Shown here: positions 25,567-58,093 of the stretch, piece after piece
Position numbering within the stretch: the first letter of the stretch is position 1
How the letters are laid out: each line of letters opens with the position of its first letter
Origin: Paracoccus sp. (in: a-proteobacteria)
GTDB lineage: Bacteria > Pseudomonadota > Alphaproteobacteria > Rhodobacterales > Rhodobacteraceae
Assembly (NCBI RefSeq): GCF_047605025.1
Contig: NZ_JASGGO010000015.1
Coordinates: 2,970-66,969 of the forward strand
Length of the DNA: 64,000 nt
Direction of reading: 5' to 3'
The notes under the pieces: generated by a model
Seen by the model: the letters and a program-made list of their open reading frames with translations, nothing else
Database searches by the model: none
What the model was told of the DNA's origin: nothing
Position numbers and translations under genes: made by a program

Positions 25567-26138
25567 TGGAGGACCTCGGCCGGCTGGCCTATCTCGCGCT
25601 GCTGCTGGTCGCCCTGGGCGGCTTTCTGGTGGTCGAACTGCGCGCCCGCCCCGGCAGGACCCTGCGGCAGGCGGCGGCCTGGGCGATGATCTTCCTGGGC
25701 GTGATCGCGCTTGCCGGACTGTGGGACGACATCCGCCAGGCGGTGCTGCCCCAGACCCGCATGCTCGCGGGCGGGCGGATCGAAGTGCCGCTGGGCCAGG
25801 ACGGGCATTTCCAGCTGACCGCGCGGGTCAATGGCGCGCCGGTGCGCTTCGTCGTCGATACGGGCGCCACCACCCTGGCCCTCAGCCCGGCGGATGCGCG
25901 CCGCGCGGGCATAGACACCGAAAGCCTGGCCTATGGCGGCGAGGCGCGCACGGCCAACGGCATCGTCGAGACCGCGACCGTCACCCTCGACCAGGTCGCC
26001 ATCGGCGAGATCCGCGATTCCGACGTGGCGGCGCTGGTGCTGCGCGCGCAGCTCGACCAGTCGTTGATGGGCATGTCCTACCTCTCGCGCTTCGCCCGCC
26101 TCAGCATCGAGGGCGACCGCCTCATCCTGGAACGCTAA
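25566..26138 (+). CDS. Membrane-anchored retropepsin-like (clan AA, TIGR02281-type) aspartic protease
   Basis: Two N-terminal TM helices, then GHFQLTARVNGAPVRFVVDTGATTLAL with DTGA. The start shares 1 nt with the MarC-family stop. Confidence 0.85.
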   Translation: MEDLGRLAYLALLLVALGGFLVVELRARPGRTLRQAAAWAMIFLGVIALAGLWDDIRQAVLPQTRMLAGGRIEVPLGQDGHFQLTARVNGAPVRFVVDTGATTLALSPADARRAGIDTESLAYGGEARTANGIVETATVTLDQVAIGEIRDSDVAALVLRAQLDQSLMGMSYLSRFARLSIEGDRLILER

Positions 26139-26172: not shown

Positions 26173-26226
26173 ACGCCTGGACACCCCCATCAAGGGGGCG
26201 TCCAGGCGTGGGGGGCAAAGCCCCCC
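26173..26226 (-). terminator. 16-bp hairpin plus adjacent GGGGGGC/GCCCCCC hairpin downstream of holC
   Basis: ACGCCTGGACACCCCC-atcaa-GGGGGCGTCCAGGCGT. The single A:C on the plus strand becomes G:U on the minus strand. A second 7-bp hairpin lies at 26210-26226. Confidence 0.6.
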
Positions 26227-33003: not shown

Positions 33004-34284
33004 ATGCGTCGAATTCTTATGGCTGCGGCTGCGACCGCGATTCTGGCCGGCACGGGCACGCTGCCCGGCCTTGGCCCGCTGCCCGCAAAGGCGCAAGGCA
33101 ACCCGTTCCAGCCGCTGGTCTATGTGAACGGGGGAGCCGTGACCCGGTTCGAACTGGACCAGCGCATGCGCTTCATGCAGATCCTGCGCGCGCCCCAGAC
33201 CGACCGCGCCTCGATCGAGAAGGAGTTGATCGACGACAGGCTGAAGGCCCAGGCCGCCAAGCAGGCCGGCATCTCGGCCAGCGAAGAGCAGGTCAATGCC
33301 GGGCTTGAGGAGTTCGCCAGCCGAGGCAATCTGAGCACCGAGCAATTCGTCCAACTGTTGTCCCATAGCGGGATCGAGCGGCAAACCCTCGTGGATTATG
33401 TGACGACGCAGGTTTTGTGGCGCGAATTCATCCGCCAGCGCGTCGTGGGCATGGTGCGCGTCAGTGATGCCGAGGTCGATCAGGCGCTGAAGAAGGTGCT
33501 GGAAACGCCGCGCGTGACCAGCGTGTCGCTGTCCGAGCTGATCATCCCCGCCCCGCCCGGCCAGGAAGACAAGGCCATGGCCCTGGCCGAACGCATCACG
33601 GCCCAGACCCGAGGCGAAAGCGATTTCGCCGCCTTTGCCCGGCAATATTCGGCCACGCCCTCGGCTCCGAATGGCGGGCGGCTGCCGACGACCCCGCTGG
33701 CGAACCTGCCGCCCAGCCTGCGTCCGATCCTGTTGCAGATGCAGCCCGGCCAGGTGAGCCAACCCTTGCAGGTGCAAGGCGCGGTGGTGCTGTTCTTCCT
33801 GCGCGGCACGCAGGGTTCTCTGCGCCCCGGCGCGACCGAGCAGGTGCTGGATTTCGTGCGCTTTCGTCTGGCCTCGGCGCAGGAGGCGGCGCGGATCGCG
33901 GCGGTCTCGGACACATGCGCGGATGTTTTCGTTCACGCGCGCGGGTTGCCGCCCGAGCAGATCCAGCGCCAGACCCTGCCCCAGGGCCAGATCCCCACGG
34001 GCGAGGCGTTGCGGCTGGCGGTGCTGGACGACAATGAAAGCACGATCATCGACCAAGGTGGCGCGGTCGAGCTTCTGATGCTGTGCAAGCGCAGTCCCGC
34101 CCTGCTGGCGAACCCGGCCCCGCCCCCGGTGGATGCGGGAAATGACGCGCCCGCGCAGCCCGATCCGAACGCCCTGCCGCAGCGAAACGACGTGCAGAAC
34201 CAGATCTATAACGCCAAGATCGGCCAGGCTGCGGAAAACAGCCTGGCGGAGCTGCGCGCCAATGCGATCATCCGCCGTCCCTGA
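33004..34284 (+). CDS. surA: SurA-like periplasmic chaperone / peptidyl-prolyl isomerase
   Basis: Signal peptide and SurA_N-like helical domain. Position between lptD and pdxA matches the conserved cluster. Confidence 0.82.
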   Translation: MRRILMAAAATAILAGTGTLPGLGPLPAKAQGNPFQPLVYVNGGAVTRFELDQRMRFMQILRAPQTDRASIEKELIDDRLKAQAAKQAGISASEEQVNAGLEEFASRGNLSTEQFVQLLSHSGIERQTLVDYVTTQVLWREFIRQRVVGMVRVSDAEVDQALKKVLETPRVTSVSLSELIIPAPPGQEDKAMALAERITAQTRGESDFAAFARQYSATPSAPNGGRLPTTPLANLPPSLRPILLQMQPGQVSQPLQVQGAVVLFFLRGTQGSLRPGATEQVLDFVRFRLASAQEAARIAAVSDTCADVFVHARGLPPEQIQRQTLPQGQIPTGEALRLAVLDDNESTIIDQGGAVELLMLCKRSPALLANPAPPPVDAGNDAPAQPDPNALPQRNDVQNQIYNAKIGQAAENSLAELRANAIIRRP

Positions 34285-34297
34285 CGGCACCACCCGC

Positions 34298-34320
34298 CGG
34301 GGGCTCCGCCCCCGCGTTTT
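34298..34320 (+). terminator. Intrinsic terminator after surA
   Basis: CGGGGGC-tcc-GCCCCCG followed by CGTTTT. Confidence 0.6.
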
Positions 34321-34376
34321 GCGTGCCCCTAAATGGGGCGCGCAAAGCGCTCCCCCGGGATATTTGGACAAGAAAG
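34314..34376 (+). repeat. 16-bp hairpin (34314-34350) plus intergenic box copy B (34357-34376, GGGATATTTGGACAAGAAAG)
   Basis: GCGTTTTGCGTGCCCC-taaat-GGGGCGCGCAAAGCGC with two G:U pairs only on the plus strand. The box ends 1 nt before the pdxA ATG. Confidence 0.65.
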
Positions 34377-34377
34377 A

Positions 34378-35349
34378 ATGAGTTTGGCCCGGCCCATCAT
34401 CCTGACCTGCGGCGAACCAGCGGGGGTCGGCCCGGAACTGGCGCCGAAGGCGCTGGCATCGGGCGTGCCCTTCGTCTTTCTGGGCGATCCCCGGCATCTG
34501 CCCGAAGGAACGGACTGGGTCGAACTGGAAGCCCTGTCGGAACCGCTGCCCGAGGGACGGCTGGCGGTACTGCGCCACGAGTTTCCGACGCCCCGCGTGG
34601 CAGGGCAACCCGACCCCGCCAATGCGCAGGCCGTGATCGACGTGATCGCGCGGGCGGTGGGTCTGGCCCAATCCGGGGCGGCGGGCGGGATCTGCACGCT
34701 GCCGATCAGCAAGGAGGCGCTGAAGCGGGGCGCGAGTTTTCCCTTTCCGGGTCATACGGAATATCTGGCGCATCTGGCGGGTGGCGTGCCGGTGGCCATG
34801 ATGCTGGCCTCGACCGAAGCCGAGCCGCCTTGCCGGGTGGTGCCGGTGACGATCCATATCGCCCTGTCCCAGGTCCCGGCGGCCTTCACCCCCGCCGCTT
34901 TGGAGCAGGCGATCCGCATGACCGACGCCGCATTACGCCGGGATTTCGGCATTCAGGCACCACGGCTGGCCGTGGCCGGGCTGAACCCGCATGCCGGCGA
35001 GAATGGCGTGATGGGCCATGAGGAAGCGACCTGGATCGCGGCCCTGGTTGCGCGGCTGCGCGGCGAGGGGTTTGCGCTGACCGGCCCTCTGCCCGCGGAC
35101 ACGATGTTTCACGCCCCGGCGCGCAGCCGCTATGACGCCGCGATCTGTGCCTATCACGATCAGGCGCTGATCCCGATCAAGACGCTGGATTTCGCGGGCG
35201 GGGTCAATGTGACGCTGGGCCTGCCATTCGTGCGGACCTCTCCCGATCACGGCACCGCCTTCGACATCGCCGGGCGCGGCATCGCCGAGGCGGGCAGCGT
35301 CGTCGCCGCCTTGCGCATGGCCTGGGAGATGGCGGGGCGCCGGGCATGA
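34378..35349 (+). CDS. pdxA: 4-hydroxythreonine-4-phosphate dehydrogenase
   Basis: [22 protein letters not shown]-terminus, [18 protein letters not shown] blocks. Confidence 0.93.
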
Positions 35350-49702: not shown

Positions 49703-49735
49703 CTTTCTTGTTCAAATATCCCCGCCGGAGGCAGC
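49703..49735 (-). repeat. Intergenic box copy C, long form (plus strand CTTTCTTGTTCAAATATCCCCGCCGGAGGCAGC)
   Basis: 31/33 identical to 53942-53974. Confidence 0.7.
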
Positions 49736-53941: not shown

Positions 53942-53974
53942 CTTTCTTGCCCAAATATCCCCGCCGGAGGCAGC
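53942..53974 (-). repeat. Intergenic box copy D, long form (plus strand CTTTCTTGCCCAAATATCCCCGCCGGAGGCAGC)
   Basis: 31/33 identical to 49703-49735. Confidence 0.7.
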
Positions 53975-53995
53975 GGCGCGCCCGCGCCGCTTTTC
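53972..53995. terminator. Hairpin overlapping the end of box D
   Basis: AGCGGCGCG-cc-CGCGCCGCT followed by TTT on the plus strand, 49 nt after the sulfotransferase stop. Confidence 0.55.
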
Positions 53996-58015: not shown

Positions 58016-58093
58016 CGGGCCGTGGCGCAGCCTGGTTAGCGCGTCCGTCTGGGGGGCGGAAGGCCGCGAGTTCGAATCTCGCCGGCCCGACCA
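58016..58093 (+). tRNA. tRNA-Pro (anticodon GGG)
   Basis: Acceptor CGGGCCG/CGGCCCG, D-stem GCGC/GCGC, anticodon stem TCCGT/GCGGA with loop CTGGGGG, T-arm GCGAG-TTCGAAT-CTCGC, encoded CCA. Confidence 0.93.

Follow-up and report, generated by a model that had tools for sequence, protein, structure and literature searches.

A short mosaic repeat with a variable palindrome slot near gene 3′ ends in Paracoccus

Repetitive extragenic palindromic (REP) sequences and the bacterial interspersed mosaic elements (BIMEs) of enterobacteria are short, GC-rich, high-copy extragenic palindromes that lie at gene 3′ ends or between cistrons, often no more than about 15 nt from stop codons, and that combine as modules. 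These elements stabilize upstream mRNA, as Newbury et al. reportedly found in 1987 for REP sequences in E. coli. In alphaproteobacteria, the RIME and Sm-repeats of rhizobia are genus-level modular intergenic palindromic repeats. We analyzed a 64,000-nucleotide stretch of DNA from Paracoccus sp. (contig NZ_JASGGO010000015.1, positions 2,970 to 66,969; hereafter the window), in which an earlier note had described two 16-bp hairpins, one downstream of holC and one downstream of surA, each followed by an AT-rich box. We conclude with high confidence that these hairpins represent the longest of the forms taken by a variable palindrome slot within a short extragenic mosaic repeat of 50–95 bp. The repeat family is apparently undescribed; it is REP/BIME-like, a familiar kind of element, with an unusual variable-stem slot.

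Two other described systems are close enough to compare. MITEPye1 of P. yeei, like the present element a small non-coding intergenic repeat in Paracoccus and the sole small repeat that we found described for the genus, is 159 bp long, has 18-bp terminal inverted repeats and 4-bp direct repeats, and is present in one to three copies per chromosome (PMC11578231). We rejected identity with MITEPye1, which is unrelated in sequence and structure. In the close relative Rhodobacter capsulatus, intercistronic hairpins of the puf operon stabilize the upstream mRNA segment, according to 1987 work as cited in PMC6238624. RNase E of Rhodobacter favors single-stranded AU-rich sites (PMC6238624). Being stable hairpins inside an operon with AU-rich RNase E sites near them, the puf hairpins are proposed here as a working analogy; they differ in being single-copy and locus-specific, not dispersed, with no conserved box.

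We re-read the claims of the earlier note against the sequence at both loci. On the holC side, which lies on the minus strand, the holC stop codon TAA (26229–26227) is abutted by a first hairpin, GGGGGGC-ttt-GCCCCCC (26226–26210), which we call hairpin 1 (hp1). The 16-bp hairpin (hp2) follows at 26209–26173, with 5′ arm ACGCCTGGACGCCCCC (26209–26194), loop ttgat (26193–26189), and 3′ arm GGGGGTGTCCAGGCGT (26188–26173). A C-rich linker, T-CCCCCCC-AG (26172–26163), separates hp2 from the AT-rich box, GATATTTGGGCAAGAAAG (26162–26145), which is followed by AG to 26143; beyond it, a convergent aspartyl-protease-like gene ends at 26138. On the surA side (plus strand), hp1 reads GGGGGC-tcc-GCCCCC (34299–34313) and begins 14 nt after the surA stop codon TGA (34282–34284). 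There, hp2 (34314–34350) consists of 5′ arm GCGTTTTGCGTGCCCC (34314–34329), loop taaat, and 3′ arm GGGGCGCGCAAAGCGC (34335–34350), followed by linker TCCCCCGG (34351–34358) and box GATATTTGGACAAGAAAG (34359–34376) plus an A at 34377, with the ATG of pdxA starting at 34378.

Both 16-bp hairpins thus exist where they had been placed, and their CCCC/GGGG tips, 5-nt loops, and C-rich stretch before the box agree with the description, as do their only non-Watson-Crick pairs (one G:U in the holC copy, two G:U in the surA copy). The outer 12 bp are complementary in both copies; calling them "completely different" went too far, as 4 of the 12 positions are identical. Missing from the description was hp1, a second hairpin directly 5′ of each hp2 and conserved in sequence among copies; within the window, hairpins of the hp1 type are confined to these two sites. 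Both units are predicted to fold as two adjacent hairpins and an unpaired box, at -58 kcal/mol (holC) and -47.9 kcal/mol (surA), more stably than shuffled sequence (z = -6.4 and -4.7, respectively).

The box occurs four times in the window, compared to 0.01 expected. To place these sites in a family, we gathered 114 distinct box copies from 874 kb of GC-rich DNA (Paracoccus genomes and metagenomes), with a metagenome scan supplying 68 further loci. The modules keep a fixed order: hp1, hp2 slot, C-run linker, and a 22-nt AT-rich box, with variants that lack hp2 or hp1. The hp1 consensus is G5-7 C-tyt-G C5-7 (15–17 nt), the linker is T + C5-7 + RG, and the box is G-GATATTTGRRCAAGAAAG-AA. Positions −7 to −3 before the box are C in 80–98% of copies, and position −1 is G in 100%. 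It is hp2 that varies: it can be absent, in which case the element reads ...GCCCCCGG-A-CCCCC..., or it can have a stem of 4–8 bp or 14–16 bp, occupying 11–37 nt when present. Short forms are perfect palindromes around a TGC or TTC loop, such as GCGCG-tkc-CGCGC, GTCGCG-tgc-CGCGAC, and GTCC-tgc-GGAC. Long forms have a constant tip and loop, CCCC-TCGAC-GGGG (consensus; loop position 1 is T in 95% of copies), and 10–12 further pairs that are variable. All 24 slots of at least 30 nt hold a 14–16-bp hairpin. Conversely, of 23 distinct hairpins of at least 13 bp with a CCCC/GGGG tip in about 1 Mb of Paracoccus DNA, 22 adjoin hp1, and 21 of those have a recognizable box.

We tested covariation in a gapless alignment of the 19 distinct long copies, scored against the 16-pair stem. 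Of the cells scored, 94.1% pair, compared to 67.3% when partners are shuffled (a value as high was reached in none of 500 shuffles) and 40–47% when the partner is slid by 1–3 columns. Changes on both sides were found at 12 of the 16 pairs, in 85 cells compared to 26 after shuffling; the only invariant pairs are the four of the CCCC/GGGG tip. The covariation proposed from two loci is therefore strongly borne out by the wider collection of copies, well in excess of the controls.

The same was seen at orthologous loci, which we reached through HolC homologues, as an exact look-up found no product identical to the HolC of the window (the nearest database relatives are 83% identical). Gene order, rsmA-pdxA-surA-lptD-lptG-lptF, then pepA-holC, is conserved in the regions compared. 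The window carries a 16-bp hp2 both downstream of holC and at surA-pdxA. In Paracoccus sp. MA, the holC-side hp2 is also 16 bp long, with 9 of the 12 variable positions differing from the window, and the surA-pdxA element lacks hp2. P. aminovorans has the short form GCGCG-tgc-CGCGC on the holC side and a 16-bp hp2 at surA-pdxA. On the holC side, P. thiocyanatus carries GCGCC-tgc-GGCGC and P. laeviglucosivorans carries GTCCC-tgc-GGGAC, while no element is present there in P. ravus, P. halophilus, or P. zhejiangensis. At surA-pdxA, the last three have a degenerate remnant, no recognizable element, and the empty site TGAtccgATG, respectively. Between the surA-pdxA stems of the window and P. aminovorans there are four compensatory double changes, and two C:G pairs of P. 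aminovorans are U:G in the window. That orthologous copies have changed in sequence with complementarity intact indicates that pairing was maintained during sequence turnover. We conclude that hp2 is kept self-complementary whatever its sequence, by selection or by homogenization, and that the long hairpin is one of the states that a labile slot can take, and is not fixed at these loci. The earlier framing, a 16-bp hairpin-box RNA unit at two loci, was right that the hairpins are real and too narrow in that they are one length form of a labile, high-copy slot.

Several features of the slot were observed in passing. Removing the central 24 nt from one long copy (L146), GCGCC-TGC-[CGCACCCCTCGACGGGGTGCGCCA]-GGCGC, yields exactly the P. 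thiocyanatus short form (L163), GCGCC-tgc-GGCGC. Long hp2 stems repeatedly contain CTGC in their 5′ arms, and TGC is the loop of the short forms; internal mismatches of the long stems cluster 5–9 bp below the loop, often at the CTGC motif. At two loci (L020, ~1330–1379, +; L138, −), the slot holds a conserved non-palindromic filling, TCGTCGCTGCGCTCCTC, which lies between C-runs and forms no hairpin.

For a palindrome in DNA, covariation alone is no proof that the structure acts as RNA. The main rival to an RNA-level function is a role in DNA, in which a recombinase, transposase, or nucleoid protein would make use of cruciforms or single-strand hairpins formed by the palindrome, much as BIMEs are used by REP/RAYT, gyrase, or IHF, and the box would be a protein-binding or cleavage site. 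Arm complementarity would then be kept by hairpin-templated repair (quasipalindrome correction) together with hairpin-centered deletion, not by selection on RNA. We consider such a role possible, if doubtful. It accounts well for stems that are mostly perfect palindromes and for length changes that are symmetrical about the loop, such as the 24-nt central deletion noted above. That one locus has a long hp2, a short hp2, or none, depending on the sister species, suggests that copies replace or convert one another, and high copy number, spread to plasmids of several genera, and sequence conservation of hp1, the C-runs, and the box (as expected of a protein site) all fit as well.

To choose the strand, the earlier note had relied on the G:U pairs, which would be A:C on the opposite strand. 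We counted stem mismatches in the 19 long copies, with G:T and A:C scored alike, and with a pair counter. The stems contain 6 G:U, 5 A:C, and ~8 other internal mismatches. Half of the G:U pairs come from the window copies themselves, without which the count is 3 G:U compared to 5 A:C. When hp2 was folded in both senses, 18 of 24 copies were more stable as the antisense strand, 8 of them by a margin above 3 kcal/mol (a constant 0.9 kcal/mol is due to the loop), while the two window copies favor the box-sense strand by 4.1 and 8.4 kcal/mol. The asymmetry therefore fails as evidence for a strand: the pattern in the window is a small-sample coincidence, and with 11 informative cells the counts are compatible with a moderate RNA-level bias. 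The lack of a G:U excess over A:C, with mismatches of every kind present, in turn favors a role in DNA.

Orientation relative to genes gave a different result. We called the strand of flanking genes from codon-position GC content (GC at third minus GC at second positions, with no stop codons), a procedure that was right in 65, wrong in 2, and uncalled in 17 test windows placed on known window genes. A ranking of frames by third-position GC only, which gave no bias, was dropped because a gene and its antisense frame share third positions. Grouping the copies yielded 69 distinct loci, 52 of them with a called upstream gene, which runs in the box-sense direction at 43 and in the opposite direction at 9 (p = 2e-6). 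Between tandem genes, the element was sense in 15 cases and antisense in 3 (p = 0.008); convergent-gene intervals hold 17 loci and divergent intervals 3. The first hairpin lies a median of 10 nt from the stop codon, and at most 15 nt in 37 of 57 cases. A terminator would not fit into so short a gap, and any full transcript of the gene must therefore include the hairpin. These distances run counter to the possibility that upstream termination keeps the hairpin-box unit from ever being transcribed. From position and orientation, the box-sense strand is probably the mRNA-sense strand; here the earlier note probably chose the right strand, for a reason, the G:U pattern, that does not hold.

This placement counts against a role in DNA, which predicts neither a sense bias with the upstream gene nor proximity to stop codons. 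Moreover, the window copies point both ways, all but one of them in the direction of the gene upstream, and the GC skew of the window has one sign throughout, with no replichore switch; both orientations within one replichore argue against an orientation set by replication. The marks of a MITE are absent: the element ends, GGGGGC... and ...AAGAAAGAA, are not inverted repeats, and comparison of the empty surA-pdxA site of P. zhejiangensis with the filled sites revealed no target-site duplication. A variable stem is also the opposite of REP/RAYT-type recognition, in which hairpin sequence is conserved, and the IHF consensus, WATCAANNNNTTR, was not recognizable in the box on inspection. Inspection of the box against other known sites, namely sigma-54 (GG-N10-GC), CtrA, the DnaA-box, and the attC core (GTTRRRY), likewise gave no fit.

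The explanation that we favor, at somewhat better than even confidence and with REP sequences and the puf hairpins as analogies, is that the element is a REP/BIME-like repeat transcribed in 3′ untranslated regions (UTRs) or between cistrons, whose hairpins protect or define mRNA 3′ ends. Placed in sense immediately after the stop codon, it would become part of the upstream gene's transcript, either as its 3′ UTR or as a spacer between cistrons. There, the pair of neighboring, highly stable GC hairpins would block 3′-to-5′ exonucleases, defining and stabilizing the 3′ end of the upstream mRNA segment. The unpaired AU-rich box, rare in a genome of 66% GC, would serve as an entry or cleavage site for RNase E, with cleavage expected inside GAUAUUUGG. 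Where a gene follows, the box would supply an unstructured, A-rich leader, and hairpins and box together would uncouple the upstream message from what follows. Selection would act on the pairing ability of hp2 alone, not on its sequence, which would explain why the stem drifts, through compensatory changes and symmetrical indels, beside a constant hp1, linker, and box. A separate observation concerns the loop: in R. sphaeroides, the 5′ ends that become enriched when RNase E is mutated have in common the motif UCGA (PMC6238624), which resembles the hp2 consensus pentaloop UCGAC; the resemblance may be coincidence.

Several results weigh against this explanation. The stems carry no RNA-specific signature, G:U not exceeding A:C, in a comparison of low power (11 informative cells). 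Non-wobble and transition mismatches occur at about equal frequency, the pattern expected of recent mutations that have not been filtered. Processes at the DNA level would be just as likely to yield perfect palindromes and symmetrical length changes. Some copies are antisense to both neighbors (3 of the 18 tandem loci, and the window copy at 53942). Lastly, a plain exonuclease barrier would not need hp1, the second C-run, the pentaloop, and the box to be as strictly conserved in sequence as they are, which suggests a sequence-specific partner.

At surA-pdxA, the ATG of pdxA lies 0–1 nt after the box in the window, Paracoccus sp. MA, and P. aminovorans, and after the degenerate remnant in P. 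ravus (junctions including L169, L170, and L172); in P. zhejiangensis, where the element is missing, a gap of 4 nt separates surA from pdxA. In the occupied species, the box makes up the whole translation-initiation region of pdxA, with no classical Shine-Dalgarno sequence (34376–34380 in the window). The third box copy of the window, on the minus strand at 49703–49732, lacks hp1 and consists of linker GCCTCCGGCGGG and box GATATTTGAACAAGAAAG (49703–49720), with an ATG directly after. A start codon right after the box is not a general rule, as a plausible start lies within 40 nt in only ~17 of 107 copies. The fourth copy (53942–53991, −) also lacks hp1; it has an 8-bp hairpin (53972–53991), the same linker GCCTCCGGCGGG, and a box at 53942–53959, and is antisense to both flanking genes. 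Its hairpin is a canonical intrinsic terminator on the plus strand, AGCGGCGCG-ccc-GCGCCGCT followed by TTTCTTCCTC, so that the reverse complement of the box sits upstream of a real plus-strand terminator.

Could the element itself be a terminator? Intrinsic terminators are likewise GC-rich hairpins at gene ends, and some copies of the element adjoin true ones. We considered a non-canonical terminator or attenuator, in which RNA polymerase would pause at, or be released by, the tandem hairpins at gene ends and the box would be the A- or U-tract of bidirectional terminators. In its favor are the position at gene 3′ ends and the enrichment between convergent genes, the terminator on the opposite strand at 53972–53991, and the finding that a further hairpin and T-run follow the box in ~18% of copies, compared to 4% at control positions. 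Tail-to-tail pairs of elements, frequent between convergent genes and confined to such intervals, also have the layout of a bidirectional terminator, the boxes flanking a short GC hairpin as AAGAAAGAA-hairpin-TTCTTTCTT (examples are L024, 1062–1116; L035; L069; L084; L138; L106/L124; and L020). However, no U-tract follows hp2, which is followed instead by TCCCCC-RG; AUAUUU lies 9–11 nt past the stem, and a terminator scan does not call hp2 plus box, its sole nearby call being hp1 with the T-rich start of the surA hp2 arm. The element also lies inside the surA-pdxA-rsmA operon with the pdxA start right after the box (or the remnant, in the fourth species), making efficient termination implausible. 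We therefore rejected a canonical intrinsic terminator. Nothing terminator-like follows the box in ~80% of copies. Termination is a role that suits a minority of the family, and we regard it as unlikely for the element as such.

The earlier note implied a dedicated regulatory RNA: a cis-regulatory structure or a source of 3′-UTR-derived small RNAs, with the box as a seed or as an Hfq or protein site and the hairpins as scaffold. Covariation, sense orientation with obligatory transcription, the conserved loop, tip, and box, and, by inspection, the presence in the box of AGAAAGAA, an (ARN)n-like run, would all be expected of such an RNA. Yet hp2 is dispensable, being reduced to 5 bp or absent at the same loci in sister species; a hundred or more near-identical boxes per genome, our estimate, are unlikely to act as a specific seed; no shared function links the flanking genes; conservation of the 3′ half of the box does not extend beyond the Paracoccus clade; and no Rfam family matches. 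At the gathering threshold, Rfam detected only two tRNAs in the window (the tRNA genes lie at 371–452 and 58016–58090, both +). The best match to both window copies was the gyrA RNA motif of Pseudomonadales (RF01740), at 28.9 and 22.0 bits, with a gathering score of 45. Like the element, RF01740 has a 6-bp hairpin directly before a 16-bp stem with a GC-rich tip and a 5-nt loop ending in AU; it differs in taxon and is present as a single copy upstream of gyrA. As the match is below threshold and was not reproduced in six other long copies (E <= 1) or four short-hp2 relatives, we regard it as a chance resemblance of shape. Overall, we consider a dedicated regulatory RNA very unlikely.

Compared to the described repeat families, the element shares with REPs, which are imperfect palindromes of 20–40 nt, a short palindromic build (hp2 of 11–37 nt, hp1 of 15–17 nt), high copy number, and extragenic position. 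In contrast to REPs, in which stem sequence is conserved, it has a hypervariable stem between conserved flanks. Its hairpins are tandem in one orientation and not in alternating inverted pairs, most copies being single and in one orientation; the unit contains a conserved single-stranded AT-rich box; and its orientation is strongly biased with transcription. A GTAG or CGTC tag is absent, as the base of the hp2 stem reads GGCGT, GGCGC, CGCGAC, and so on, followed by T/C-CCCCC, with no constant tetranucleotide. Likened by description only to RIME and Sm-repeats, the element differs in module order, is shorter, and has a variable slot. A literature search by sequence retrieved, within the library searched, no paper containing hp1 or the reverse complement of the box.

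We are highly confident, judging by sequence matches, that the box belongs to a repeat of the genus Paracoccus that is highly amplified there and has relatives in other Rhodobacterales. Among the matches listed (one genome per species), the box is present in P. yeei, P. aminovorans, P. panacisoli, P. ravus, P. litorisediminis, P. pacificus, P. luteus, and P. binzhouensis, with at least 15 exact copies on the P. yeei chromosome. Single matches in other phyla, in AT-rich genomes, were taken as chance. Relatives with the same module order occur on replicons of P. versutus, P. pantotrophus, P. denitrificans (L177), and P. aminophilus, and on plasmids of Leisingera (L174), Phaeobacter (L175), and Cereibacter (L176, beside mobC on a C. 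sphaeroides plasmid); BLAST also returned matches, counted as matches only, on Ruegeria, Roseovarius, and Salipiger plasmids. These relatives share hp1, a short hp2, TCCCCC, and GRG-GRTATTT, followed by a 3′ half that is purine-rich but differs. The hp1-hp2-linker-GATATTT part is near-identical on the Cereibacter and Phaeobacter plasmids, which suggests plasmid-borne spread.

The conserved hp1 and C-runs were the subject of further observations. In P. binzhouensis (L003, ~1140–1236, +), the hp1 module is tandemly duplicated upstream of one box (CCGGGGGTTCACACCCCCCGGACCC...CCGGGGTTTCACACCCCCGGACCCCC), while the orthologous loci of P. yeei (L037) and P. ravus (L077) have a single hp1 module. Conservation of the second C-run, TCCCCC, equals that of the hp1 arm of which it is a duplicate, giving the hp1 G-run two possible partners flanking hp2; one may speculate about alternative pairing or a triple-strand contact. 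By inspection, a G-quadruplex looks unlikely beside such strong hairpins.

On a bolder reading, which we consider improbable, the hp2 slot would make new perfect palindromes and resize them in place, for instance by hairpin-templated synthesis or conversion between copies, within an element targeted just after stop codons, and a factor would read hp1, the second C-run, the UCGAC pentaloop, and the box. The element would then be a dedicated 3′-end processing system for an estimated hundred or more mRNAs, or a new class of stop-codon-targeting mobile DNA. Either of these would go beyond a passive REP-like repeat.

The finding concerns a familiar kind of element and opens no long-standing question. 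If the favored explanation, in which the hairpins of a REP/BIME-like repeat protect or define mRNA 3′ ends, is true, Paracoccus and, more loosely, other Rhodobacterales would carry an undescribed repeat family that marks many gene 3′ ends and operon junctions by a tandem hairpin of great stability and an AU-rich box. Such a family would be relevant to the annotation of 3′ UTRs and to RNA-seq and small-RNA catalogues of these GC-rich bacteria, as well as to operon engineering in P. denitrificans, P. versutus, and P. pantotrophus. The hp2 slot, in which unrelated 16-bp stems, 5-bp stems, or no stem occupy one locus in sister species, is a clean natural example of structure-only constraint, and could help separate selection at the RNA level from palindrome maintenance at the DNA level.

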